The notes: generated by a model not told the origin, from the letters alone. A stretch of 64,000 bases of DNA from an uncultured virus (IMG/VR IMGVR_UViG_3300031087_000513) (IMGVR_UViG_3300031087_000513), one strand, 5' to 3'. Shown: positions 6,898-48,897, counted from the stretch's first letter. Translations and numbers: made by a program.

Positions 6898-7245
6898 TTA
6901 CTCAACAGTCTCGTAGACAATGATGGTCTTTTCCACAGGGACAACTGCTTGCAGACTGTTAGCATACCAGCGGTCAGAATCGTATGAGTCGTAAGTACCT
7001 TCAATACGATAAAGGTTATCGCCAACGCGGAACACAAGGGTCATCGCCTCAGTTCCACCCTCACCGCCACCTTCGCTATCAACATACGTAGCGATGCCGA
7101 TTCCAGGAAGCTCAGCCGTGGCAGGGTCCTGTCGCCAGGAACTCTCAATGGCCTCTGCAAACTCGTTCGCGTCACCCTCCCAGCTGTCTTCATTCGCATT
7201 GCCATACGTACGAATAGCTTGCTTGATTTCATTCAAAGTTGCCAT
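6898..7245 (-). CDS. acidic paralog family B
   Basis: LPGIGIATYVD-EGGGEGG...LVFRVGDNLYRIEGTYDSYD. Confidence 0.85.
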   Translation of the reverse strand: MATLNEIKQAIRTYGNANEDSWEGDANEFAEAIESSWRQDPATAELPGIGIATYVDSEGGGEGGTEAMTLVFRVGDNLYRIEGTYDSYDSDRWYANSLQAVVPVEKTIIVYETVE

Positions 7246-7352
7246 AGTTATACTCTCCTCATTCATAATGTTTATACTTACAATAGCATATTTTTAGGGA
7301 AAATGAAAGCCCATGTCAATCTGCGACATGGGCTTTCAGAAGTTTTTACAGG

Positions 7353-7694
7353 TTACTCAACAGGCTTGTAATCGATGATGGTACGCTCGTACGGCATCAC
7401 AGCATGCATGCCGTCAGTGCTCCATTCGCTACCATCGTAGGAGTTGTAGTAACCAGTAATGCGGTACATGTTCTCACCAAGCTGGAAGACAACCCACACA
7501 TCCTCGCCACCGCCCTCTTCACCGTACTTACCGTCCTGGTAAACAGCAGTGCCGATTCCATCCAGCTCAACCTCAGGGTTAGTGTTTTCAGAGCGCCAGA
7601 CAGGCTCAAGAGCCTGCGCGAATCCGTTGGTACCACTGTTGTACCCGTTACCATACGCCTGGATTGCGTTCTTGATTTCTGCGATGGTTGCCAT
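7353..7694 (-). CDS. acidic paralog family B
   Basis: GEEGGGEDVWVVFQLGENMYRITGYYNSYDGSEW. Confidence 0.85.
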   Translation of the reverse strand: MATIAEIKNAIQAYGNGYNSGTNGFAQALEPVWRSENTNPEVELDGIGTAVYQDGKYGEEGGGEDVWVVFQLGENMYRITGYYNSYDGSEWSTDGMHAVMPYERTIIDYKPVE

Positions 7695-7732
7695 ATTCTT
7701 CTCTCTTACTGTTGATTTTCCGTTGTCGGAGT

Positions 7733-8065
7733 TTACTTTACCACAGGTGAAGTCGTGTCTGCAACCTCTACCAACTGTCCGCCGTGTCGCGCTTCCCAAC
7801 TAACATCACGGTCATCCTGTCCCGCTTCAAGGCGATACTGCTTGTCACCCAGAGAGAACACCAACCACGTGGGTTCGTCGGTGTGCGCCTCAATATGACT
7901 GTCCACATAGGTCGCTACACCAACTGTTGGGAAGTAATATTCATCAGTGTAGTTGAACTGGTCAACAAAATCCCATGCGTCATCAACGCCATCATTGTAC
8001 GGGTCACGGATTTCCTTCTCAACAGCTTCCACTGTAAGAGCATCTCGGGACATAGAATCACTCAT
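7733..8065 (-). CDS. acidic paralog family B (divergent)
   Basis: VGVATYVD...WLVFSLGDKQYRLEA. Confidence 0.8.
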   Translation of the reverse strand: MSDSMSRDALTVEAVEKEIRDPYNDGVDDAWDFVDQFNYTDEYYFPTVGVATYVDSHIEAHTDEPTWLVFSLGDKQYRLEAGQDDRDVSWEARHGGQLVEVADTTSPVVK

Positions 8066-8071
8066 CGCTCA

Positions 8072-8431
8072 TCACCAACCCCAAGGTTCAGCCTCAGGGG
8101 CCGTAGGAACTGGGTCAGTCTCACCACGAGGCTGCGCGACAGGAGTGAACACGTATGTGATTTTCTCTTCCTTTGTTACCTCAGTCAGCGAGTCATCCCA
8201 CTCAGGAGCGTCATAGGAGTCGTTGTATCCACTCAGCTGGTAATACTTCTCACCAACCTGGAACACAATCCAGATAGAGGAAACATCATATCCAGGCTGC
8301 TCACCATCAATATACGTGACAGTCCCCAGGCCATCAATCTCCACGCTGGTGTTTTCCAGACGGTACGCAAACTCATTCAAGTCAGGTTCGTGAGCTGTGA
8401 TAGCTGCTAAAATTTCATTAGGTGTTGGCAT
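8072..8431 (-). CDS. acidic paralog family B
   Basis: IDGLGTVTYID...WIVFQVGEKYYQLSGYNDSYDAPEW. Confidence 0.85.
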   Translation of the reverse strand: MPTPNEILAAITAHEPDLNEFAYRLENTSVEIDGLGTVTYIDGEQPGYDVSSIWIVFQVGEKYYQLSGYNDSYDAPEWDDSLTEVTKEEKITYVFTPVAQPRGETDPVPTAPEAEPWGW

Positions 8432-8437
8432 AGCCCT

Positions 8438-8812
8438 TTACTTTCCTTCGCTGTTTGTGTATGACACAGAGGTCACGACAGAAGAAGTGACCTCTTCAAT
8501 ATCGCCCCACTCGTATCCGTCAATGTCGTTGAGGCCCTTGATGCGGTACACCTTGTCATCCAGGTGGAAGACTACGCTGATAGGCACTCCATACCCCTCA
8601 TCATCGCCGTAAGTGGGAATTTTCTGCTTGTCAATGCAGGCTGCAATGCCTACACCAGGGATTTCCACCTGGGAACCATCAAGCCAGCTTCCAGGCTTCG
8701 TAGTGTCGTAGTAACCATCAAAGAGGCAAGCGGCAAAGTTGTCCAACGCAGACCCCTTGTAAGTCGGCTCAATGCGCTCGATACCTGCCATAATTTCAGC
8801 AATAGTTGCCAT
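8438..8812 (-). CDS. acidic paralog family B
   Basis: IPGVGIAACID...VVFHLDDKVYRIKGLNDIDGYEW. Confidence 0.85.
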   Translation of the reverse strand: MATIAEIMAGIERIEPTYKGSALDNFAACLFDGYYDTTKPGSWLDGSQVEIPGVGIAACIDKQKIPTYGDDEGYGVPISVVFHLDDKVYRIKGLNDIDGYEWGDIEEVTSSVVTSVSYTNSEGK

Positions 8813-8970
8813 GTGATTCTCTTCTCCTTAGTATGAAAAACTCTGAACTTTCTACGTATCAATCCTACCACATTTCAGTGAAATTTTCAAGGAGCAACCT
8901 GTTGCATGGAAGATGAAGGTGTGGTACGTTGGGTCAGTACAGAAGAGATTTTTACACAAGGAGAGAAACC

Positions 8971-9297
8971 ATGATTGAGACCCAGGCTACAATTCCGAAC
9001 CTGTCAATGATTCCTGCTGAGGAGCTGGAAGCTTTGCGAGAGAAGATGTCTACTGAGACGGTGAAGCTTCTGAATCAGGAGCTTGTTCCGAAGCTTCGTG
9101 AGATGTCCAAGTACCAGGGTCCTGTTGAACTGATTGCGGAGCCGAAGTTCTCCTTTGAAGAGGAGGACGATAAGTGGGTTTTCAAGCAGACTGTCAATGT
9201 CACCCTGAATCTGCCTATCCCTGCTCCTGATGACATCTTTGCTCAGGTAGAGCAGACCATCTTCCGCGAGCTGTTTAACCGCTGCATCGCTAAGTAG
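8971..9297 (+). CDS. hypothetical protein
   Basis: Promoter TTGCAT(8902)-N17-TACGTT, SD AAGGAGAGA. Confidence 0.75.
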   Translation: MIETQATIPNLSMIPAEELEALREKMSTETVKLLNQELVPKLREMSKYQGPVELIAEPKFSFEEEDDKWVFKQTVNVTLNLPIPAPDDIFAQVEQTIFRELFNRCIAK

Positions 9298-9305
9298 TGA
9301 CCAAT

Positions 9306-9348
9306 ATGAGTAAGGCCCCAACCTGATACAGGTTGGGGCCTTACTCAT
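9306..9348. terminator. bidirectional terminator
   Basis: ATGAGTAAGGCCCCAACCTG/CAGGTTGGGGCCTTACTCAT between convergent genes. Confidence 0.85.
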
Positions 9349-9362
9349 TGCCTTAGGACGTA

Positions 9363-9746
9363 TTACTTCTTTTTGTTGTAGACAACAACAATTTTCTCTT
9401 CAGCAACAACTTCAAACACGTCGCCCTCGTCCCAGTTACTGCCATCCCAGGAGCCATACCACCCTGTCAGCTTGAACAGCTGGTTGCCAACATGGAACAC
9501 AACCCAGATGTCCTCTCCTCCACCTTCAAACCCAGGCTTAGAGTCAACAAGTGTCACTTCACCGAGTCCATCAAGCTCTACCTTGACCTCCTCATACTTC
9601 TGGGTCTGAGGATTGTATTCTTTTCCCTCTAGAAGTGCCTGAGCGAAAGTATCTCGCCAGCTGTTAGAGTTCTGTTCGTTGCTCTCGTGAACCTTCTCAT
9701 TGTAGGCTTCAATAGCTGACTGGACCTGTGCTGCTGTAACGCTCAT
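9363..9746 (-). CDS. acidic paralog family B
   Basis: GFEGGGEDIWVVFHVGNQLFKLTGWYGSWDGSNW. Confidence 0.85.
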   Translation of the reverse strand: MSVTAAQVQSAIEAYNEKVHESNEQNSNSWRDTFAQALLEGKEYNPQTQKYEEVKVELDGLGEVTLVDSKPGFEGGGEDIWVVFHVGNQLFKLTGWYGSWDGSNWDEGDVFEVVAEEKIVVVYNKKK

Positions 9747-15040: not shown

Positions 15041-15118
15041 ACTTATCAGCATAAAGCAAAGGTCTCAATCAGGTAGGTTTTTCTTGTTTTGTGTATTCAT
15101 CCATGATAGAATCCGATC

Positions 15119-28888: not shown

Positions 28889-28968
28889 TGCATTTGAAAA
28901 AGTGCATTTCTAATTTCCTCTTCCAAGTGGATAAGAGCCAGGTCCTTGACAGCCTGGCTCTTATCTGT
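28889..28968 (+). ncRNA. candidate small RNA with CU-rich single-stranded region
   Basis: TGATACGAT extended -10, 5' hairpin, TTTCCTCTTCC tract, terminator hairpin. Confidence 0.35.
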
Positions 28969-29711
28969 TAATCCGCTTTTTTACCAGCTGAGAAATGCTG
29001 GTTCAGCTGTTTGTTCGCTTCCACTAAATCTTCAACGAAGTCCACTTCAACTGCGTCAAAATGATGGCGAGTCAAGGAGAACGGAACCCAGTTGATGAGA
29101 TGTTCATCAATGGTGCGTTCCATTGCTTTCTCAAAGTAATCCTGAGGATGCACGGCATCTAAAGCAGACCGAAAAGCTGGGAAGTCATATTTGTGAACCA
29201 TATTGATACCAACAGCTTCGCCCACAGCTGTATCTAATGAGACAGTTTTAGAAAGCTGGTCAATCTCTCCGAACTGGTCAATTGTATACTTCACTTCTTC
29301 CTCAGAGACTTCTCGTTCAACAGTCCCTACAACTGATGAGTCTTGAGTTGCTAGCATCTTCGCCAACAGTCCTTCTGGGAATACCACATCCCCGTTGAGC
29401 CAAGTGACATTCTCAGCATGCTCAAACGAGTTCAACGCGGCAAGCAGGCTTTTTGAGGTGTTCGTCACCGCATAGTTAGGGTTGGAAACGAATTGGACAT
29501 TCGGAAACATCTGCTTCACTGCTTCACGAATACGATCCTCACAGAACCCAACCACAATACGAACAGAAGCTGGTTTGACTTGATGAATCAACCTGAGTTG
29601 CCGGTACAGGATTGTTTCGCCTGTTGTGAGTACAGTAAGACATTTTGGATGAGGTCTTCCTAACCGTGACCCAATCCCTGCTGCAAGGATGACATAATGT
29701 TGTCCTGACAT
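28968..29711 (-). CDS. LicC-like phosphocholine/sugar-phosphate cytidylyltransferase
   Basis: ILAAGIGSRLG--PK-L, NT--SL, NGDVVF, EVDFVEDL. Confidence 0.88.
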   Translation of the reverse strand: MSGQHYVILAAGIGSRLGRPHPKCLTVLTTGETILYRQLRLIHQVKPASVRIVVGFCEDRIREAVKQMFPNVQFVSNPNYAVTNTSKSLLAALNSFEHAENVTWLNGDVVFPEGLLAKMLATQDSSVVGTVEREVSEEEVKYTIDQFGEIDQLSKTVSLDTAVGEAVGINMVHKYDFPAFRSALDAVHPQDYFEKAMERTIDEHLINWVPFSLTRHHFDAVEVDFVEDLVEANKQLNQHFSAGKKAD

Positions 29712-29787
29712 AGACCCTCCCTAGAAATCTTTGAATAATTTCAAGTTTAGCATTGACTTATTGAGGAGCTGGGTTTATATTGATTGC

Positions 29788-29850
29788 AAGTACATAACGG
29801 TGGCAGGCGGGTTGAACATAGATTCCCCGCCTGCCATTGCCAATTTTTCT
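29788..29850 (+). ncRNA. candidate short hairpin RNA
   Basis: TTGACT-N17-TATATT promoter, 14-bp GC-rich hairpin and U-tract between divergent genes. Confidence 0.5.
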
Positions 29851-29979
29851 TCCAATTCACAACGAAAACACAGCTTCCTGACTGATAACTCTCCTCAAAC
29901 GACACAACGTTTTTCCGAACTGCTCCGAAAAACAATGTAACGTGGATGATATGACCAGACACGAAGGAAGGAGAGCATC

Positions 29980-30336
29980 ATGACAACTGCTGTGCAATAC
30001 TTAGAAGAAGAAACAGGGTACATCCCAGACTCTGACCTACCAGCTCGTTTAGGACGTGCTGAGCTGGTACGAGTACTCGAAGCGACTTTCAGCTTTGAAG
30101 TTACCCGAGCAGATGAAGATGACTACGAGGAAGAAATCTACGAAGAAGGTTCCTACCCAGTCCTGGAACTCACTGTGAACACAGGAGAGCAGGAAGAAAC
30201 TTTCATCGTCATCAGCCCAAATGATGAAGAATGGTATTACTACGAAACCATTGATGATTTCATCAGTGAAACATATTACGACACCGACGATGTTTCTTAC
30301 AACTATGAAGTCATCAGCGATGAGAACGCTGAGTAG
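29980..30336 (+). CDS. highly acidic hypothetical protein
   Basis: D/E/Y-rich; SD AAGGAG. Confidence 0.75.
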   Translation: MTTAVQYLEEETGYIPDSDLPARLGRAELVRVLEATFSFEVTRADEDDYEEEIYEEGSYPVLELTVNTGEQEETFIVISPNDEEWYYYETIDDFISETYYDTDDVSYNYEVISDENAE

Positions 30337-30724
30337 AATTGTCGTCTCCTTAGGAGTGGCAACTGCTATCTGTTTGGTAGCAGGCTGTTCCTCAGGAAAC
30401 AACACACCTGGGGTGACATTCAGCCAAGTCAAAAATGGCAGTCACGATAATGCAGCTCCAATGCAACCACATTGGACAACTACTGCGAAAGGTGCTGTCC
30501 TTCTGCACCTGTACGGGTCATCCTCTTGTCCGCCTAAGGTAGAGCAAGTCAAACAGGAGGGTTCAACACTACGAGTTACGCTTCACAAATATTCAGGAGC
30601 TTGCACTGCTGACTATGGTGGACCGTATATGTGGAAGGTTTCAGGATTGGCAAAAGAACCGCGAAAAATCACCATTTTCACAGGTTTGAATGACAAAGGT
30701 TATCTCTTGAAAAGAACAACCTAA
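30320..30724 (+). CDS. lipoprotein
   Basis: Lipobox LVAGC; YGSSSCPP...ACTAD motif. Confidence 0.8.
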   Translation: MRTLSRIVVSLGVATAICLVAGCSSGNNTPGVTFSQVKNGSHDNAAPMQPHWTTTAKGAVLLHLYGSSSCPPKVEQVKQEGSTLRVTLHKYSGACTADYGGPYMWKVSGLAKEPRKITIFTGLNDKGYLLKRTT

Positions 30725-30814
30725 AATTTAGCTGATAAAACCCTGGAAATTACGTAAAACAGCCGAAAAGGTATTTAGAACCTCTTTCCTTTGGTTTTGA
30801 CTTACTCTAAGAAC

Positions 30815-30893
30815 ACAGAAGAAGGCCCCACCAGTATGTTAGTGGGGCCTTCTTCTGTGTCACTATAGTTCCGAGGACGGAATTATAGTGACA
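30815..30893. terminator. tandem hairpins between convergent genes
   Basis: ACAGAAGAAGGCCCCAC/GTGGGGCCTTCTTCTGT then GTCACTATAGTTCCG/CGGAATTATAGTGAC. Confidence 0.75.
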
Positions 30894-30895
30894 TG

Positions 30896-31162
30896 CTATC
30901 TTTTAGCAAGATTCTGGCTGCGAAAGAACTTGACGCTCAACCAAGTAACCCAGATGACGAGAAAGAACGTCACAACCATCTGTACACCAACAACCATCAG
31001 TAACAGCTGAATCCGCTGTGTTGATGAACCATCCACAAGGAAGGCGGGTGACAGAACTGGGATAATGAGCCAACGCCAAAGAGCCAGCAGACCTATCCCA
31101 ATTGCGATGGCTCCAACAGCGATGCCACCACGAGTGAGTTCTTTCCGTACTGTGTTAGCCAT
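30896..31162 (-). CDS. small membrane protein
   Basis: Two TM helices; coupled to upstream ORF. Confidence 0.7.
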   Translation of the reverse strand: MANTVRKELTRGGIAVGAIAIGIGLLALWRWLIIPVLSPAFLVDGSSTQRIQLLLMVVGVQMVVTFFLVIWVTWLSVKFFRSQNLAKR

Positions 31163-31425
31163 TATGCTCGGCGGCTCAACTTACGGTAAACCACGTAGAC
31201 AACAGCTGCTGCTGCAACCAAAAGGACCAGCCAGAAAATGACGCGAATAACAAACGCGAAGATGACGAAGGACAGCCATAAACCTGCACCGACCACAGCG
31301 CCGCCCAACGCGCCAAGCACGATAGACTTCACTGTGTTATTAGAATCGCTGTGGTCAGCTCGGGAAAGCAGGAACCCTGCCCCAGCGCCGATGATAGCGA
31401 ACACTGCTACAAGAAAAACGAACAT
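31162..31425 (-). CDS. small membrane protein
   Basis: Hydrophobic Gly-zipper-like helices; SD AGGAG. Confidence 0.75.
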   Translation of the reverse strand: MFVFLVAVFAIIGAGAGFLLSRADHSDSNNTVKSIVLGALGGAVVGAGLWLSFVIFAFVIRVIFWLVLLVAAAAVVYVVYRKLSRRA

Positions 31426-31502
31426 ACTTATCTCCTATTTACATGGAATACCCATTATAGCATCCCATCTGGATCATCGGCTCGAATCCGATAATGACTG
31501 GT

Positions 31503-32030
31503 ATGAGAAAAGTATTCATCCCATTACTGGTCATTCCAGTGCTACTGCTTGCTGGTTGCGCTGAATCACAACCAGCTCCTACCCCATCAGCGACAGCCCA
31601 AGGGAACGTCGTCAATAAGGAAGTCGGCAAGAATGGCACCTACTTCCCTGAGTACCATCCGATCAGTCATGCGAAAGCTTGGGATAAGTACAAGGAGTCA
31701 GGTGCGAAGCTTCCGTCAGAAGACCCAGCTATTCGTCCGCTTACTACGGAGGAGTTCGCCAAAGCCTCTGACGTGGCAGAGACATTAAAAGTACAAGGTG
31801 AAGTCACCGCTGATGCTGAGGCTACTGCAGTGAATATCACCAGCTGGTTAGAGAAGAACCCGAAGCTTGCAACTGACACAATTGAACCACCAGCTGATGT
31901 GGTTGTAAACCGGTACCCAAACTTGGTCAAATACACGTACACGAAGATGCAATCAGGGAAAAACTATGAAGTGTACGGAACCAGTTCAGACGGTAGCGTT
32001 ACAGGGTACGCACAAACAACAGTGAAATAA
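31503..32030 (+). CDS. lipoprotein
   Basis: Lipobox LLAGC followed by Pro/Thr linker. Confidence 0.8.
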   Translation: MRKVFIPLLVIPVLLLAGCAESQPAPTPSATAQGNVVNKEVGKNGTYFPEYHPISHAKAWDKYKESGAKLPSEDPAIRPLTTEEFAKASDVAETLKVQGEVTADAEATAVNITSWLEKNPKLATDTIEPPADVVVNRYPNLVKYTYTKMQSGKNYEVYGTSSDGSVTGYAQTTVK

Positions 32031-32095
32031 TCTCAGAGACACGCCCGAAAAACACTGATATTTGACGCGAGGGCCTCAATCAGGTATTGTATGTT

Positions 32096-32375
32096 TTGTC
32101 GCCGCGGAGAAGCGGAAAACGAATGGGAAGACCGGTTATGTCTTCCGCGCGGATTCGTTTCTACCGTGGCGATAAGGAAAGCATCCCTACTGAGCCAGAT
32201 TTTTTCTCTCTCTCCTTATCAGGTTGAGTGGGGGATGAAAAGCACAGTGAATAGTTGAAGCAAATGACGCTCCTTGAAGCTACGCTCTTTCCTTGGTTGC
32301 AAATAACAGAAAATAGAAAACCCCTGAGAACAGCTTTCTCTCTCTCCTCTCCCAGCTGTTCTCAGGGGTTTTTCT
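32096..32375 (+). ncRNA. candidate structured sRNA (about 280 nt) with two UC-rich loops
   Basis: TTGACG-N17-TATTGT promoter; long 5' stem-loop; two hairpins with TTCTCTCTCTCCT loops, the second being the terminator. Confidence 0.7.
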
Positions 32376-32383
32376 TATCTATT

Positions 32384-33664
32384 TCACTCGCTGTAATCTC
32401 CGAAGCCACGAGAGCAAGTGCTCTCATCTGCTGTCTGACCTGTCACATCTTTCGGCAATGCAACAGCAGAAGAAGACTGTGTAGGTGTAGGGGATGCTGA
32501 GGTGGAATCAGAAGGAGAACTCGGTGGTGTTCCCGTAGCTGCATCCGTAGGTGAAGGTGTCGCTGTTGGTGTTTGCTTTACGGAACCAATGTTTCCAGGA
32601 GCTGTACCACCTGTAATGCTGACTTCCTTGTCTGAGAACACTGCATCAATCATTTGCTGAGCAGAATCTTTCACAGGGTCAACCGCTTCAGAACCGTCAG
32701 CAGCTGGAGCGGTCGGGTACTGCAAGAACGTAATGTTCCCCAATGGGACATCTTTCAGCGTGTACGCCAAGGAAGCTAAAGTAGACACGGAGCCTAAGCT
32801 GGTAGAAAGCTGCATGTTATCTGCAACAACATGCGCAATATCGTACACCTTCTTCGGATCAGAAAGAGTCTGTTTGCTCTTCAATGTGCGCATCAAAGAA
32901 GACAGGAACACCTGCTGGTTGGAGATACGACCTAAGTCGGAACCATCACCCACACCATGACGGGTGCGCAGGAACGCAAGAGCATCATCACCAGAAAGAG
33001 TGTGTTCACCAGCAGACAAATGTAATCCTGAAAGGTCATCGCTGATGTCGTTCGCAACACAGACAGGCACTCCGCCGACTGCGTTACTCATGGATACAAC
33101 ACCATCGAACGTAATCTTCGCAGCGTATGGGATTTCTTGACCAGTCAGCTGGCGGAAGGTGTCAACAACGCACTTCAAGCCTCCATCTTTTCCTCCACGG
33201 GAAAGGGACTGGTTGATTCGCATATGCGTGACAGCTGGGTTCGTGGCACCAGTATCGGTGTTCACACACTGTGGAATGTTCACGTATGTGTCACGAGGGA
33301 CAGAGATAGCAGTTGCTTTAGTGTGGTCAGCGGAAACGTGCAACAGAATGTTCACGTCATTGAGAACCTTTTCACGAGGCCCATATTTTGCTTCTCCATT
33401 ACCGTCATCACCACCGACAAGTAGCATAGTGAAAGCACCGTCGAACTCATCAACCTGAGGAGAGTTATCAGCTTTTGTCGTTTTTGATGGTTTCGGAGCT
33501 GCGCCAATGTCAACAGCGTTCTCCTGAATCCGATGATTCAAATCCCAGACAGCATACCCTCCGATGGTACCTGCTGAGACAATAGCGACTGCTGCAGTGA
33601 TCCCCAACCATTTGAAGATAGCTTTCCTGCGAGCTCCTGGTAGAGCTTTACCATGCTGAGCCAT
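32384..33664 (-). CDS. LCP (LytR-CpsA-Psr) cell-wall glycopolymer ligase
   Basis: TM anchor, SVPRDTYV, RIN, GGV-VC, FLRTRHGVGDGSDLGRISNQQ. Confidence 0.95.
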   Translation of the reverse strand: MAQHGKALPGARRKAIFKWLGITAAVAIVSAGTIGGYAVWDLNHRIQENAVDIGAAPKPSKTTKADNSPQVDEFDGAFTMLLVGGDDGNGEAKYGPREKVLNDVNILLHVSADHTKATAISVPRDTYVNIPQCVNTDTGATNPAVTHMRINQSLSRGGKDGGLKCVVDTFRQLTGQEIPYAAKITFDGVVSMSNAVGGVPVCVANDISDDLSGLHLSAGEHTLSGDDALAFLRTRHGVGDGSDLGRISNQQVFLSSLMRTLKSKQTLSDPKKVYDIAHVVADNMQLSTSLGSVSTLASLAYTLKDVPLGNITFLQYPTAPAADGSEAVDPVKDSAQQMIDAVFSDKEVSITGGTAPGNIGSVKQTPTATPSPTDAATGTPPSSPSDSTSASPTPTQSSSAVALPKDVTGQTADESTCSRGFGDYSE

Positions 33665-33887
33665 AACTCGTGCTTTCCTTATCGTTTTTTATGTTGTCCG
33701 TGTTATCCGCTGGAGCAGATGTGAAGTCTTTGAACTCTCAGCGAAAAATCAGCGTGCATCGTTGGACGCGATAGGTCAAACTTATTATAAGCATGCTTAT
33801 GTATTCACTACCATTTTCCACGTTTTACTCAGACACGCCACGATCAGCAAAAGTTGACGTTTCGAAGCGGATGGGGTTATGATAAGT

Positions 33888-33986
33888 CATGTTACAGATC
33901 AGCGAAACGCAACGTGTTGGTCCGTAACATGTATGTGTGTTGATATAGAAAATGGGACCCTCCAGAATCTGGAGGGTCCCATTTTT
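33888..33986 (+). ncRNA. candidate small RNA or leaderless micro-ORF transcript
   Basis: TTGACG-N18-TATGAT promoter, hairpin CATGTTAC...GTAACATG, terminator 33948-33986. Confidence 0.45.
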
Positions 33987-33997
33987 AGTGAAGAAGA

Positions 33998-35056
33998 CTA
34001 CCCAATACCTACTTCTACGCTGATACTCGGACTAGGGCTGCTCGTCACGGAAGGTGATGGAGCTGGCTGTGTAGGAGTAGCGGTAGGAGCTGGTTTGACC
34101 GGCTCAGTCGGAGTTGGTGTTGGCTGCGGCTGTTTTGTCGGCGTAGGTTTTGGAGTACTCGGAGCAGGAGTACTTGGAGTAGTTGGAGCAGGAGTGCTCG
34201 GCTTTGATGGAGCTGGCTTAGAAGGCTGCTGTGATGGGCTTGGTGCAGGAGTTGCAGGCTGCGCACCTGAACCAGAAACTGCGCCTGGTAACACTGGAAC
34301 ATCCAAAGGTGCTGGGACATTCGCAACACAGGTAGGTTTGCTCAAAGCTGTGTAAGATGCGTTCTCCAGAACTTTCAAACCAACCTTGGAGAAGTAACCC
34401 TTCGGGTCAACACGGGTACCTGTACCGTATCCACCTTCCCAAACTTCAATGTGCAAATGAGGACCAGTAGAAACACCGGTTGAACCAACAGCTGTAATCT
34501 GCTGACCCGCTTTAACCTGGTCACCTACTTTCACGAAGGTAGAGGATTTCTCCATGTGGTGGTAGAAGAAGTCAACTCGTTCACCGTTGATTTCAGTAGC
34601 GAGGATGACTGTTCCACCTTGACCACCAACAACACCATCAATGACTTTTGTGATAGTTCCATTAGCGATAGCGTAAATAGGTGTGCCGTTCGGGGCAGCT
34701 AAGTCAATACCGCCATGCTTGGACGAAGCTCCTGAGGTTGGCGGGCATCGCTCACCATAATCAGACGTGAAACCGTAAGACTTTGGTGGGAGTGGAAGCT
34801 GAAGGCCAACTTTGTCTGCGACACTTGGCCCTTTCTTCTCAGCTTTTTTCTTCTCCTCGGCAACTTTCTGTTCTTTCTTCTGCTGTTGCTTATGCTCAAC
34901 AGCTTCGGTTTTGTCTGATTCAATGGTTCTGGTAATAGTTGAAGTGTTGCTTACAGAGGTCACATGGACATCACCAGCTACAGTAGCTGGCGCACTGGGC
35001 ATACTTCCGATCATTGCAAGAGCAAAGAATTTCACCACTACGAATAGGGGTTCCAT
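33998..35056 (-). CDS. M23 family peptidoglycan endopeptidase with Pro/Thr-rich tail
   Basis: HGGIDLAAP-GTPIYA, YHHM, GSTGVSTGPHLH. Confidence 0.93.
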   Translation of the reverse strand: MEPLFVVVKFFALAMIGSMPSAPATVAGDVHVTSVSNTSTITRTIESDKTEAVEHKQQQKKEQKVAEEKKKAEKKGPSVADKVGLQLPLPPKSYGFTSDYGERCPPTSGASSKHGGIDLAAPNGTPIYAIANGTITKVIDGVVGGQGGTVILATEINGERVDFFYHHMEKSSTFVKVGDQVKAGQQITAVGSTGVSTGPHLHIEVWEGGYGTGTRVDPKGYFSKVGLKVLENASYTALSKPTCVANVPAPLDVPVLPGAVSGSGAQPATPAPSPSQQPSKPAPSKPSTPAPTTPSTPAPSTPKPTPTKQPQPTPTPTEPVKPAPTATPTQPAPSPSVTSSPSPSISVEVGIG

Positions 35057-35237
35057 GCTGGCCTTTCTAAATCCACGTTCTAGGAAATAAGTTCACGCTC
35101 ATAGTATAAAGAATAATGAGCTGCTGGTCGTGTAAAAAATACGTCCCTTCGTTTATCGGCAACGACAAAGAAAGACATGAAAAGTTTCCTGAGAAAAACC
35201 TTGATTCCTTATCTAAGAACTGATATAGTAAACACTA

Positions 35238-36050
35238 ATGAGTAAAGACACTAAAACGAAGCGGAACCCAGATATCCCACAGTGGGTTCAGGACACATAC
35301 CGTCCACAAGACATGCACCCGCACGCCGTCATCCTCTCAGGATCAGATACCGAAGGCTGGTTAGTGCGGACAGTTGATTTTGCCCAGGTGAACCTCTACA
35401 ACAAGAGCGTTACCCATCAGAATGCTGCTGACCTCCCAGGAACTGAGACACTTTACTCAGGAACACTGGAAGAAGTAATCCAGAAGCTCAAAGAGACTCC
35501 AGACCAGGAAATCCTCTATTCAGAGGACGTTCTCTCTGTATTGCAGGAGAGCAACCCGAATACGTTCATCTTCGGTTCATCCAGTCAAATCACCGAACGT
35601 TCAATGGTTCGCTGGGATTATGAGTCCTTCCTCAAAGCGTACAAAGCCTACGAGAAAGACCCGAATGACATTGGAACCGTTTATGACTTCCTGAACCTCC
35701 ACCCAATGTTCTGGCGTTATGAGGAAACTTCACCCGCTCGTGATGGTGTAGCTCGTCCACCGATGTTGGTTACCGACCGTGGTTGGTCAGTTATTGATTT
35801 GATGGTTGTCCGTGAGCGGAACAAGAAGACCAAAGAAGTAGAAACAACAGTCATGCTGGAAGCAGGAGCCGCATCAGCGAATGCGAACCGCTACTACATG
35901 TACCACGACTACAACCTGGATGTATACGAAAACTCACTGGATGCAGCGTATATCAAACTGGCTAAGTACATCCATGAGGATTACGACGAACACGGTATCC
36001 TGCGTAACGGCGAAGATGAACCGAATCGGGTCTTCAAGAAACGTGACTAA
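35238..36050 (+). CDS. hypothetical protein
   Basis: Long ORF, leaderless start; HPMFW and HDYNLD motifs. Confidence 0.8.
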   Translation: MSKDTKTKRNPDIPQWVQDTYRPQDMHPHAVILSGSDTEGWLVRTVDFAQVNLYNKSVTHQNAADLPGTETLYSGTLEEVIQKLKETPDQEILYSEDVLSVLQESNPNTFIFGSSSQITERSMVRWDYESFLKAYKAYEKDPNDIGTVYDFLNLHPMFWRYEETSPARDGVARPPMLVTDRGWSVIDLMVVRERNKKTKEVETTVMLEAGAASANANRYYMYHDYNLDVYENSLDAAYIKLAKYIHEDYDEHGILRNGEDEPNRVFKKRD

Positions 36051-36091
36051 AATGGTGCTTTTGCAAGAAATCTGATAGTAATAGTACCACT

Positions 36092-36346
36092 ATGAGCAAC
36101 CTTTCATACACCCTATACAGCCCAGACGAGACTATCCCTCCTGTCCGTGAAAAAATCACGCATCAGTTCAGCATTCCAGCTGAAACATTCATCACTGATG
36201 CAGTTCTCGTCATTCGTGAAGATAACGACATCACTGCGGTGGGTCTTCTCAACCCTGGACAGCATGCACCTCAGTTGTTCCCAGGAGCGCTAAGCGAACA
36301 TGACCTTCGCCAGGAACTTGCTTCGTTCTACCCAGTCTTCGCATAA
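36092..36346 (+). CDS. hypothetical protein
   Basis: ORF directly after a promoter-like sequence. Confidence 0.65.
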   Translation: MSNLSYTLYSPDETIPPVREKITHQFSIPAETFITDAVLVIREDNDITAVGLLNPGQHAPQLFPGALSEHDLRQELASFYPVFA

Positions 36347-36417
36347 CCTGTTGCATCTGTCAGACTCTTCTGCTACACTGATAACACAACGTCAGTTGAG
36401 AGAGAAGAGAGAAGATA

Positions 36418-36903
36418 ATGGCTATTGCAGGAAAGCTCCTCACGTCGGCAGTCACCACTGCCCTGAGCAATTCGGAGCACTTCAAGCCCGCACTTGCGCC
36501 TGCTGCTAAGCTCGGCAAGGCGACAGTGAAGGTTCTGTGGGGTACTGCCTGGAAGGCTGCCCTCATCAACTTCGCCATCGGTGCTATCTGGCTGGTGTCG
36601 TTCATGGTGAACTACACCACGCAGAACACGCTTGCCATGGTTGAAGGGAACGGTCTCATCTGGATGGGCCTGCTGACCATGCTCGTTGTTCCGTTCACCG
36701 TGTTCACCTTTGAGTGCATCCGCATGGGTCGCAAGCTTCGTAAGGCTGCTGACGCTGAGCGTGAAGCTCTCGCTGCGGCTGCCGCTCTTGAAGCTGCTCA
36801 GGCAGTTGAGCAGACCTCGCAGGCTCCCGCTGACTGGACTGTTTACAACACTCCTCCTGTTTGGTCGGTTCCGCAGAACCAGACGGAGAACGTGCATAAC
36901 TAA
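36418..36903 (+). CDS. two-TM membrane protein
   Basis: TTGCAT-N17-TACACT promoter, GA-rich 5' UTR, terminator after. Confidence 0.8.
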   Translation: MAIAGKLLTSAVTTALSNSEHFKPALAPAAKLGKATVKVLWGTAWKAALINFAIGAIWLVSFMVNYTTQNTLAMVEGNGLIWMGLLTMLVVPFTVFTFECIRMGRKLRKAADAEREALAAAAALEAAQAVEQTSQAPADWTVYNTPPVWSVPQNQTENVHN

Positions 36904-37007
36904 ACGTTTTACATGTGTTGCTCCCAGAAGAAGGATTTTCTGGGAGCAACACGCATTAACAGATAACATTACGGTATACATCCACTCTCAGCATCAAAGG
37001 AAAAAAT

Positions 37008-37304
37008 ATGGATATCTTCAACGATCATAAAGGCATCCTCCCAGCACGAATCAATTGGCGGAAAGTCCAGTTCAAGAAAGTCATTGCCGACAGTGACAGG
37101 ATTAGCGTAGCCTTCAAAGTTCTTGTAAATGGTGAACTTGTCGGTGCAATTGGAAAGATTAGAAACAATACCGCTTCACGTCTCAAAGACTGGGTATGGG
37201 TTGTTCCTGGTGAAAGCTTTACCAGCGTATCACCACGTCGTCTAACTTTCACTCGTAAATGGGCAGCTGCTCATCTTCTTTTCAAGGACCTCCCTGCGGT
37301 ATGA
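37008..37304 (+). CDS. basic hypothetical protein
   Basis: SD AAAGGA; ATGA overlap with next gene. Confidence 0.7.
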   Translation: MDIFNDHKGILPARINWRKVQFKKVIADSDRISVAFKVLVNGELVGAIGKIRNNTASRLKDWVWVVPGESFTSVSPRRLTFTRKWAAAHLLFKDLPAV

Positions 37305-38029
37305 ACAACGCACTCATCGTCATCCCCACCTACAATGAGCAAGCAAACATTCAACGTACTGTCACTCAGGCAATAGAAGCTGTCCCTGAGGCTTCAATCC
37401 TCATTGTGGACGATAGCTCCCCTGATGGAACAGGTGACCTCGCTGATTTTCTTTCTGAGCAATATGACACTGTTCATGTTCTCCACCGTGCAGAAAAGAA
37501 TGGTTTAGGTGAAGCCTACAAAGCAGGGTTTACTTGGGGGATTGCGGAAGGATTCAAAAAGTTCATTGAAATGGACGCTGATGGCAGTCACCATCCTGAA
37601 TACCTTCCCACACTCATCAACCTGTTAGATGAGGCAGACATGAGTGTTGGGTCACGCTATATTCCAGGAGGCTCTACTCCTGAATGGGCCTGGCATCGCA
37701 CAAAACTTAGTAGCGTTGGAAACAAAGTAGCGAAGAAGCTCCTCAAAACAGACGTGCATGACATTTCCAGTGGTTTCCGCGGGTACACACTTGAAGCATT
37801 GAATCGGACACATTACGATACAGCTGAAAGCAAAGGATACAGTTTCCAAGTTGAGATGATTCTCCGCGCTGAACAAGCAGGGCTGAACATTGTTGAGACA
37901 CCTATCGCATTCACGGACAGAGTGAAAGGTAGCTCCAAGATGGATTACCGCGTCCTATCTGAAACAGCAGGACGTATGCTTAAATGGAGTATTCGGACAC
38001 GCTTTACGAAAAAAGCTGTGCAGGGTTGA
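37301..38029 (+). CDS. ppm1: polyprenol-phosphate mannose synthase-like GT2
   Basis: IPTYNE, VDDSSPDGTG, K-GLG-AY-AGF, EMDADGSH, GSRY--GG, GYSFQVEM. Confidence 0.9.
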   Translation: MNNALIVIPTYNEQANIQRTVTQAIEAVPEASILIVDDSSPDGTGDLADFLSEQYDTVHVLHRAEKNGLGEAYKAGFTWGIAEGFKKFIEMDADGSHHPEYLPTLINLLDEADMSVGSRYIPGGSTPEWAWHRTKLSSVGNKVAKKLLKTDVHDISSGFRGYTLEALNRTHYDTAESKGYSFQVEMILRAEQAGLNIVETPIAFTDRVKGSSKMDYRVLSETAGRMLKWSIRTRFTKKAVQG

Positions 38030-38073: not shown

Positions 38074-38295
38074 ATGGCAGAACGATTAGTAAAATGAGCG
38101 AAACGGAAGCGTATTCATCCGAAAATCGCTTATAAAATGTACCGAAAAGGCATGATTTTACTCCCTGATGAACTACAAAATGATTTTATCTCTGATCTGA
38201 TGGGCCTGTTAGCTTCTTTTGTTGTAAAATTGTACGGTCAGCGTTTAGCAAAAATCGTGCTGATAAAGCGGTGAAAGTGTTAGGAGAAGTATACG
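38074..38295 (+). pseudogene. tnpA: IS607 serine-recombinase transposase remnant
   Basis: MAERLVK*AKRKRIHPKIAYKMYRKG joined to DFISDLMGLLASFVVKLYGQR; stop, deletion and frameshift. Confidence 0.75.
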
Positions 38296-39612
38296 GTGCA
38301 AACCATTGCCTTAAAATACGCCCTGAGCCCTACTATAAGTCAGATGGATTCGCTTTCCTCTCATATCGGGGCTGCTCGTTATGCTTATAACTGGTCCGTA
38401 GCAACCGTGGCAGCAAATTGGGAAGCAGTTCAACAGGAACCGACTATTCCTTACATGAACCTGTCAGCTTACGGTTTACGGAAAGAGCTGAACCGAGTCA
38501 AGGATGAGATTGCTCCCTGGTGGCGAGAGAACAGCAAAGAAGCATTCGCTACTGGAACCGCTAACGCTGCAATGGCTTTCAAGAATTGGTTCAAAAATCG
38601 CAACGGTACCAGGTCTGGCAAAACAGGATTCCCAAAATTTAAAACACGGAACCATGACACGCAGACAGGTATTGTTTTCACTACTGGAACACGTAGGCTT
38701 GAATCCGATAATTGTCATTTCACCCTACCCACCATTGGGTCAGTGCGGTTACACGAGAAAGCGAAAACTCTCCGCTGGTTCTTACATCAGGGCAGTACTA
38801 TTGCTAATGTAACAGTTCGTAAGGATGGAACTCGCTGGATTGCTTCCATTAATGTAAAAGTAGAGGATACTCTTGCTTTGCAGTACTTCGCTGGAAAACA
38901 AGGTAGGAAAACTCGTAAATCAGCTGTTGGTGTTGATGTTGGTCTGAAAGTTTTCCTCGCCACAAGCGATGGAGCATTCATAGAAAATCCAGCTTTCCAG
39001 CGTAAAGCATTAGCGAAGATACGTAAAGCTAATAAGCGGTTAGCGCGGAGACGAAAACTGGATAAGCGCACTGGGGAGACTGCCTCAGTGCGTTGGGACA
39101 AAGCGCATCAACAGCTTGTGAGAACCCATGAGAAGATTCGTAACCAGAGGACTGATTTCCTACACAAGGTAAGCAAACAGTTAGTTGATGATTACCAGCT
39201 CATCGGGATAGAAGACCTGCATATTGCTGGGATGGTACAGAACAGGCACTTATCCAGAAGTATTGCTGACGCGGGTTGGGGTGAGTTTCGTAGGCAGCTC
39301 ACTTATAAGAGTGCTTGGTATGGAAATGAGTTACAAGTAATTCCTCGGTTCTACCCGAGTAGTAAAATGTGTTCAGCTTGTGAGACAGTAAAAGCCACAC
39401 TGTCTCTAAGCGAACGGACATTTAGTTGCGCAACTTGCGGTTTAGTAATGGACCGTGATGTGAACGCTGCTGTGAACATTAGGAATAAAGCTGTCGCCCA
39501 GAGTTGCGGGGAGACATTAAACGAACGTGGAGAGGAAAGCACTGGCTTGGTCAAGTTGACAAGTGAAACTATCCTCGGTGAAACGTTAAGAGACAATAGT
39601 CTCAAGTCATAA
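38296..39612 (+). CDS. tnpB: RNA-guided endonuclease TnpB
   Basis: GVDVG, IEDL, CSAC...CATC, DRDVNAAVNI. Confidence 0.95.
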   Translation: MQTIALKYALSPTISQMDSLSSHIGAARYAYNWSVATVAANWEAVQQEPTIPYMNLSAYGLRKELNRVKDEIAPWWRENSKEAFATGTANAAMAFKNWFKNRNGTRSGKTGFPKFKTRNHDTQTGIVFTTGTRRLESDNCHFTLPTIGSVRLHEKAKTLRWFLHQGSTIANVTVRKDGTRWIASINVKVEDTLALQYFAGKQGRKTRKSAVGVDVGLKVFLATSDGAFIENPAFQRKALAKIRKANKRLARRRKLDKRTGETASVRWDKAHQQLVRTHEKIRNQRTDFLHKVSKQLVDDYQLIGIEDLHIAGMVQNRHLSRSIADAGWGEFRRQLTYKSAWYGNELQVIPRFYPSSKMCSACETVKATLSLSERTFSCATCGLVMDRDVNAAVNIRNKAVAQSCGETLNERGEESTGLVKLTSETILGETLRDNSLKS

Positions 39613-39690: not shown

Positions 39691-39731
39691 TAGTATGAGC
39701 TTCTAACCTTTTTAGAGAGAAGAGAACTACC

Positions 39732-48818: not shown

Positions 48819-48897
48819 ACTGACTTGAACCTATAGTTTCCGTGTGTTACAATGTGACGGAGTGCAATAGTTTTGCAATACGGAGAAGAGGATACTA

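Follow-up and report, generated by a model that had tools for sequence, protein, structure and literature searches.

Introduction

Does the gene-free gap at 32031-32383 in an uncultured element of leaf microbiomes that is large and phage-like (IMG/VR IMGVR_UViG_3300031087_000513) encode a regulatory RNA, and on which mRNAs might such an RNA act? The gap separates two convergent genes, one for a lipoprotein on the + strand and one for an LCP/LytR protein on the - strand. An initial annotation of the 64,000-nt stretch analysed here (the window) had placed in it a discrete structured RNA, with two loops presented for pairing with Shine-Dalgarno sites. Among large uncultured phages and phage-like elements of Actinomycetota, regulatory RNAs have been described in few cases, and this element has none on record.

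Results

As a whole, the window has the appearance of a segment of a large phage or another type of extrachromosomal element. Of the 85 ORF products scanned in it, 15 match Pfam above the curated cut-off, a tRNA search of the window found none, and the sole DNA similarity to phage records is that of a DUF7275 gene (66-69% to Streptomyces, Arthrobacter and Rhodococcus phages). The nearest Atlas clusters of the LCP protein are mostly from Actinomycetota, and judging from such sequence comparisons this is the likely phylum of the host. One strain variant of the element, L002, is a metagenome contig of 878,612 bp, which would be exceptionally large if it represents one phage or extrachromosomal element.

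The neighbourhood of the gap is an envelope module, with genes for an M23 peptidase, a family-2 glycosyltransferase, a MobA-like nucleotidyltransferase and several small membrane proteins. The MobA-like nucleotidyltransferase, the lipoprotein, the LCP ligase, the M23 peptidase and a GtrB-like glycosyltransferase, all encoded within 28968-38029, are an unusual set for a phage-like element, and suggest modification of host wall glycopolymers. The 178-aa lipoprotein belongs to no Pfam or PHROG family; the strain differences in its gene fall almost all on third codon positions, which indicates that the gene is real. Neither the terminator scan nor the inverted-repeat list places a terminator between its stop codon (32030) and 32317, so that the lipoprotein mRNA would carry the whole RNA unit described below as its 3'UTR. 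On the opposite strand, the LCP gene stops 12 nt from the terminator that both genes share (Table 1).

Other features of the window were recorded in the course of the analysis. A TnpB/IS605 OrfB-type gene (PF01385, PF07282, PF12323) lies at 38296-39612 (+), 6 kb from the RNA of the gap; its own guide-RNA region would sit at the 3' end of the gene and is unrelated to this RNA. The 9-mer TATTCATCC occurs at 15094-15102 (+), 17466-17458 (-) and 38112-38120 (+), each time exactly 25 nt upstream of a start codon (15119, 17441 on the - strand, and 38137), and may be a shared promoter or operator element.

Table 1. Coordinates of the RNA unit, its flanking genes and two ribosome-binding regions complementary to it, counted from the first letter of the window
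Feature	Coordinates	Strand	Description
Lipoprotein gene	31494..32030	+	178 aa; signal peptide and LLAGC lipobox in the translation
Candidate promoter	32062-32090	+	TTGACG-17 nt-TATTGT; 9/12 match
5' stem-loop	32097-32174	+	30 pairs, -44.5 kcal/mol; apical hairpin GGAAGAC/GUCUUCC
Internal copy of the LCP ribosome-binding site	32170..32183	+	14-mer CGATAAGGAAAGCA; exact match to 33684-33671 (-)
Hairpin 2	32182-32237	+	presents the 17-nt CU loop 1, UUUUUCUCUCUCUCCUU, at 32201-32217
CU box 2	32268-32276	+	CGCUCCUUG; half open, unpaired probability 0.54
CU box 3	32286-32296	+	UCUUUCCUUGG; unpaired probability 0.18; mostly paired with the internal ribosome-binding-site copy
Terminator	arms 32317-32335 and 32354-32372	bidirectional	19-nt arms, 100% complementary; shared with the LCP gene
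Terminator loop	32336-32353	CU sequence on +	18 nt, UUCUCUCUCUCCUCUCCC
LCP (LytR-CpsA-Psr) gene	32384..33664	-	PF03816, 3.7e-38; convergent
LCP ribosome-binding site	33671..33684	-	CGAUAAGGAAAGCA, 6 nt before AUG; candidate target of loop 1 and CU box 3
GA-repeat leader	36396..36420	+	leader GAGAGAGAAGAGAGAAGAUA-AUG of gene 36418..36903

All the features named in the initial annotation are present where it had placed them, and folding bore out its long 5' stem-loop, its looped hairpin and a terminator that repeats the loop sequence. The + strand of 32090-32375 folds at -108.8 kcal/mol, compared with -79.5 +/- 5.2 kcal/mol in shuffled sequences (z = -5.67), and none of 200 shuffles equalled it. 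Loop 1 and the terminator loop share an identical 14-mer, TTTCTCTCTCTCCT, on stems that are unrelated. Allowing at most one mismatch, TTCTCTCTCTCC has exactly two copies in the 64 kb on both strands, one per loop, against 0.52 expected; two or more copies anywhere were seen in 8 of 100 shuffles. Partition-function calculations give both loops an unpaired probability of 0.99-1.0 (0.99 for loop 1, with an opening energy of 0.03 kcal/mol, and 1.0 for the terminator loop), and neither is predicted to cost anything to open. The pentamer TCCTT occurs three times in the 286-nt unit, against 0.4 expected. With its 18 nt, the terminator loop stands out from the other hairpins of the window: on the inverted-repeat list, which was used for this comparison as a stricter terminator scan gave only 7 sites, 23 of the 25 longest hairpins (mostly terminators) have loops of 0-11 nt, and longer loops occur only here and in one other hairpin (16 nt). 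A scan for other pyrimidine-rich hairpin loops found no second unit and returned mostly antisense images of ribosome-binding sites; its 5-pair stem filter also missed loop 1.

The + strand folds better than its complement because of six G-U pairs in the two upstream hairpins. The 5' stem-loop, with four of these pairs, reaches -44.5 kcal/mol on the + strand and -30.0 kcal/mol on the - strand, and hairpin 2, with the other two, -20.6 and -14.5 kcal/mol. Transcription of the region was examined in RNA libraries. In the metatranscriptome run X17 a 189-nt contig at 32112-32300 lies wholly inside the unit; with a depth of 2.9, no strand or end information, and an origin in a type of library that can hold DNA, it is supportive of a transcript. 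No contig of run X19 falls on the unit, and none of X17 on the lipoprotein or LCP genes; the comparison covered 4 of the 24 listed runs, and missing cover was given no weight in either direction as to whether the transcript is independent. Word shares, which were 0.05-0.12 in the RNA runs, were left out of the habitat reading.

An RNA started from the candidate promoter would begin near 32097-32098, where the 5' stem has its base. The initial annotation had described it as near-consensus; a site with 9 of 12 matching positions is indeed there, but the description was overstated, as such matches occur at chance level (24 found against 22.9 expected in 20 kb). Since the promoter match carries no statistical weight, an origin from the 3'UTR of the lipoprotein gene is equally possible, and the RNA may be the 3'UTR of the lipoprotein mRNA, may be processed from it, or may be initiated separately. 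RNA-library contigs were also found upstream of the lipoprotein gene, at 30896-31453 on the - strand, both in X17 (31000-31453, and ~100 nt further left) and in X19 (31150-31422). This region holds two small ORFs of 88 and 87 aa, the second with a weak, below-cutoff glycine-zipper match, which lie behind an extended -10 element, TGcTATAAT, at 31462-31454.

A metagenome scan recovered two strain variants, L001 (98.1% identical) and L002 (98.9%). Over 29999-36664 the window and these two variants have 162 substituted sites in 6666 nt (2.4%), none of which lies in 32031-32383. The longest substitution-free run is 609 nt (31877-32485) and the next 234 nt (P ~6e-5). In four other intergenic stretches (1052 nt) there are 27 substituted sites, which corresponds to ~9 expected in the 353-nt gap, or ~7 when counted by events, since 6 of the 27 differences belong to one event. 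This event concerns the hairpin at 30804-30869 (28-nt arms): its 10-nt loop at 30832-30841, CAGTATGTTA in the window, is replaced in L001 and L002 by the exact reverse complement. The six differences are accounted for by one loop inversion ('flip') that is polymorphic among strains. The DNA run X16 has no substitution between 31949 and 32491 among the differences listed. The invariant tract takes in a further ~150 nt of one flanking gene and ~100 nt of the other, and it could stem from recombination instead of selection on the RNA.

The sole changes within the gap, among those listed for L001, L002, X16 and X18, are indels of a repeat unit or of single bases. L001 lacks one TC unit at 32205-32206, in loop 1, and X16 lacks 2 nt at 32337, which is one CT unit of the terminator loop; slippage can both generate and maintain (CT)n tracts. 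In X18, a relative at 93%, one base is missing at 32195 and another at 32230, the predicted bulged G of hairpin 2. The candidate promoter is unchanged in L001 and L002, and in X18 a 1-nt deletion at 32074 is offset by a 1-nt insertion after 32077, so that its spacer stays at 17 nt. The relatives seen are strains at least 98% identical, plus X18 with few of its differences listed, a set in which no covariation is available. The indels break the only sizeable ORF, and the region is therefore non-coding. This 55-aa ORF (32091..32258), considered as a small protein gene and rejected, loses its frame in L001 (32205-32206) and in X18 (32195 and 32230), and no Shine-Dalgarno sequence precedes its ATG. 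The strict conservation, the strand-specific G-U pairs, the frame-breaking indels and the RNA-library contig inside the unit make the discrete structured RNA of the initial annotation likely, and we consider that the + strand probably produces a functional RNA.

Both loops consist of CUCCU preceded or followed by CU repeats. This is the complement of the local AAGGAG-type ribosome-binding sites, which often continue as AGAGA, and the purine-rich ribosome-binding sites of ~15 window genes are complementary to the loops. The individual sites to which the initial annotation had pointed were confirmed: AAGGAGAGA upstream of the starts at 686 and 8971, AGGAGAGA upstream of 4910 and 12536, and GA-rich leaders upstream of 36418 and 39732. 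Its description of the loops as presented for pairing likewise agrees with their predicted unpaired state and with their complementarity to these purine-rich sites. Among 38 non-self sites complementary to 8-mers of the loops, 12 lie 4-15 nt before the ATG or GTG of an ORF of at least 60 aa, compared with a background share of 7.7% (p 1.7e-5) and with 16% for plain AGGAG; three further complement sites (8958, 4923 and 17721) miss the distance or length cut.

We compared 117 start regions by net binding energy, that is, the energy of the cofold minus the folds of both partners. Duplex folding that included long flanks did not discriminate between regions, large internal loops dominating the structures. 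Loop binding at or below -8 kcal/mol is predicted for 21-22% of the start regions, against 6-7% of intragenic controls, an enrichment that, like that of the complement sites above, is partly, and in good measure, built in because any CU tract complements Shine-Dalgarno sites. Beyond this built-in enrichment are duplexes of 14-17 pairs with a subset of leaders (36418, 686 and 8812). The GA-repeat leader of gene 36418..36903 (+) is the best predicted partner of both loops, at -20.5 and -20.3 kcal/mol (rank 1/117 each). The gene encodes a 161-aa two-helix membrane protein, and its three strain differences are all at third codon positions of the + frame. The next-best predicted partners are 8812, 17707, 7245, 7694, 686, 4910 and 12536, and 8812, 7245 and 7694 are members of a tandem array of paralogous small proteins.

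The array, at 6898-9746 on the - strand, comprises at least six paralogues of 110-127 aa without a known family, 27-37% identical to the first and with N-termini MATIAEI or MATLNEI. Purine leaders of the GAGAGAAGAGA or GGAGAAGAGA type were found at 36396-36417, 39712-39728, 8817-8830 (-), 7697-7706 (-) and 48880-48894. They stand upstream of several starts, some of which have no canonical GGAG, and may form a distinct class of ribosome-binding site in the element.

The ribosome-binding site of the adjacent LCP gene is predicted to pair with loop 1 at -14.0 kcal/mol and with CU box 3 at -12.1 kcal/mol; by net binding it ranks 12/117 for loop 1 and 10/117 for CU boxes 2-3. The RNA itself contains an exact copy of this site, and a local match as good as this copy arose in 1 of 300 shuffles of the LCP leader. 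Inside the RNA the copy has an unpaired probability of 0.03 and is partly paired with CU box 3; loop 1 is an alternative pairing partner for it (inverted repeat I2). As loop 1 repeats the terminator-loop sequence, it also has a 14-nt complement in the purine-rich terminator loop of the LCP mRNA. We take these relations as a hint, and a doubtful one, that the LCP gene is one target of the RNA and that the internal copy of its ribosome-binding site restrains one seed.

The search against Rfam suggested in the initial annotation matched no family. None reached the gathering score on the whole 64 kb, and a relaxed search of 31900-32500 (E up to 10) returned 11 weak rows at chance level, none of them 6C or LhrC; the only Listeria row was rli56 (E 2), on the - strand over the terminator. 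No homologues beyond the strain level were found in the phage, viral, genome and metagenome collections. Phage records gave no match to 31494-33664 by blastn or to the 178-aa lipoprotein by tblastn, and tblastn of the LCP protein found only distant Firmicute-phage or fecal-phage LCP genes with at most 35% identity. No relative of the LCP protein was found in the genome and viral contig collections, the 178-aa protein gave 1 stretch and 0 loci in viral contigs, and three DNA patterns gave 0 matches there. A match to GGAAGACCGGTTATGTCTTCC among genome contigs (L003) was rejected as a chance 21-mer: it lies in an ABC-ATPase-like coding stretch of a methanogen MAG contig, and its flanks bear no resemblance to the window. 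A literature search on phage-encoded sRNAs produced no description of this RNA, which is not proof of absence.

Discussion

The closest known RNA in design is LhrC of Listeria monocytogenes. According to the LhrC study (PMC4132741), it has three redundant CU-rich sites, in a hairpin loop, in a single-stranded stretch between hairpins and in the terminator loop, which bind the Shine-Dalgarno region of envelope-protein mRNAs with no need for Hfq. The CU sites of the RNA described here are similarly placed in loop 1 (32201-32217), in the boxes at 32268-32296 and in the terminator loop (32336-32353), and the predicted pairing is likewise with the Shine-Dalgarno region of envelope-protein mRNAs. 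The UCCC motif of LhrC is found here only at the end of the terminator loop (CUCCC); loop 1 and the CU boxes have UCCU. The two RNAs differ in that they have no sequence or Rfam similarity, and the one described here is ~3 times longer, with a long extra 5' hairpin, has seeds made of (CU)5 dinucleotide repeats, carries a copy of the ribosome-binding site of a neighbouring gene, and belongs to a phage-like element that is probably actinobacterial.

The initial annotation had drawn its comparison with the 6C RNA of Actinomycetota, for which the 6C report (PMC6486639) describes C-rich loops acting on G-rich ribosome-binding sites without a chaperone. The analogy holds for the two exposed pyrimidine loops, with their presumed chaperone-free binding to purine-rich ribosome-binding sites, and the likely host phylum is the same. 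It does not extend to the sequence: Rfam gives no match, and 6C loops are C runs for G runs, whereas C and U alternate here, the longest C run being 2 in UUUUUCUCUCUCUCCUU and 3 in UUCUCUCUCUCCUCUCCC. RsaE/RoxS and other UCCC-motif sRNAs of Firmicutes are similar in masking Shine-Dalgarno sequences with unpaired C/U-rich motifs, but there is no family match to them, and size, architecture and genomic setting differ. The 3'UTR-derived sRNAs of the DapZ/MicL type share the terminator of the upstream mRNA; they are Hfq-dependent and enterobacterial, and have single-stranded seeds. The present unit resembles them in lying directly after a coding gene, in using its only terminator and possibly in having an internal promoter, but its seeds are in loops, and its promoter is a candidate. 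By analogy, the RNA is a plausible CU-rich, Shine-Dalgarno-masking sRNA, LhrC- or 6C-like in its working and not in its ancestry.

The model that in our opinion best explains the observations overall, and that we put forward tentatively, is that the CU-repeat loops mask purine-rich ribosome-binding sites. The gap would encode a + strand non-coding RNA of ~280 nt, either started from its own promoter at 32062 or forming, with or without processing, the 3' end of the lipoprotein mRNA, and ended by the terminator common to the convergent LCP gene. The long 5' hairpin would cap the RNA, and the two apical loops, one of them the terminator loop, would each expose (CU)n-CUCCU, with two more CU boxes between them. 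In vivo, the exposed pyrimidine tracts would pair with ribosome-binding sites of the AAGGAGAGA or GAGAGAAGAGA type, and repression would follow from blocked 30S binding, the mode of action of LhrC, RsaE/RoxS and 6C. The initial annotation had further conjectured that such a repressor might leave leaderless mRNAs unaffected. The element's own envelope and membrane genes would be the likely targets, including gene 36418, several members of the paralogue array and possibly the LCP gene; host mRNAs would be further possible targets.

The main rival to masking, which we regard as rather unlikely, is that the unit is a structured 3'UTR and terminator of the lipoprotein mRNA, stabilising this message and insulating the convergent genes from each other, with CU loops that have no role in trans. 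It agrees with the obligatory passage of the lipoprotein mRNA through the unit, with the chance-level promoter match, and with a bidirectional terminator so close to the LCP stop. However, of a plain 3'UTR one would expect neither the highest conservation within a 6.7-kb stretch, found here over 353 nt, nor the same 14-mer in two long open loops in a window where loops of the longest hairpins are mostly short; and the terminator loop at 30832-30841, in the same genome, differs freely between strains. The repetition of identical open loops would also suit a sponge or platform for a protein of the host or of the element (S1-like or another pyrimidine-binding protein), in which case the loops would not bind mRNAs, and the linkers are conserved like the stems, as if a protein reads many surfaces. 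Such a role seems improbable to us given the extended complementarity of 14-17 pairs to real start regions, the lack of a match to known bacterial protein-sponge families, and the lack of an RNA-binding domain by Pfam among the 85 ORF products of the window.

Slightly less probable still is that there is no RNA function at all, the gap being a DNA-level element or a tract left by recent recombination or a sweep, with its CT runs as neutral microsatellites that lie in hairpin loops. The extension of the invariant tract (31877-32485) into both flanking genes and the loss of one CT or TC unit in two strain variants, as from slippage, would fit this. Yet a DNA element would not need the six G-U pairs that favour one strand, and an RNA-library contig lies inside the tract; the window, L001 and L002 share it while differing mutually on both sides, and X16 is also without substitutions in it among the differences listed. 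A functional RNA read from the - strand is very improbable. Both of its loops, GGAGAGAG and AAGGAG, carry GGA motifs and resemble those of the GGA-loop decoy RNAs by which CsrA/RsmA-type proteins are titrated, and there is a weak terminator-like site at 32146-32126. Against this, both upstream hairpins fold worse on the - strand, where they have no G-U pairs, the region lies past the LCP terminator and has no promoter-like site on this strand, and Rfam gives no CsrB/Rsm family match. A CsrB/RsmZ-type GGA sponge was rejected on these grounds, its GGA loops being confined to the worse-folding, promoter-less strand with no family match. CsrA is not known as a feature of Actinomycetota, the likely phylum of the host.

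Returning to the masking of ribosome-binding sites by the CU-repeat loops, two properties of this RNA are unusual: it differs in repeat-unit length only within its seeds, and it has the neighbour's ribosome-binding site built in as a copy. Both would have a place in a more elaborate scheme, which as a joint reading we think has little chance of being correct. The RNA would be a multi-seed regulator whose slippage-prone (CU)n seeds are retuned by gain or loss of repeats, so that strains would shift the register and strength of pairing while the remaining RNA is frozen. The copy of the ribosome-binding site would act as an auto-inhibitory mimic, and the RNA would couple the translation of the LCP gene, for a wall-glycopolymer ligase, to that of the membrane genes with GA-rich leaders, possibly also forming a bridge from the 5' ribosome-binding site of the LCP mRNA to the purine-rich loop of its 3' terminator.

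The practical value of the finding is limited for now, as the evidence is computational. If masking is true, large phage-like elements of this kind would carry LhrC- or 6C-style translational silencers of envelope genes, and a dinucleotide repeat of strain-variable length would serve as a natural seed.
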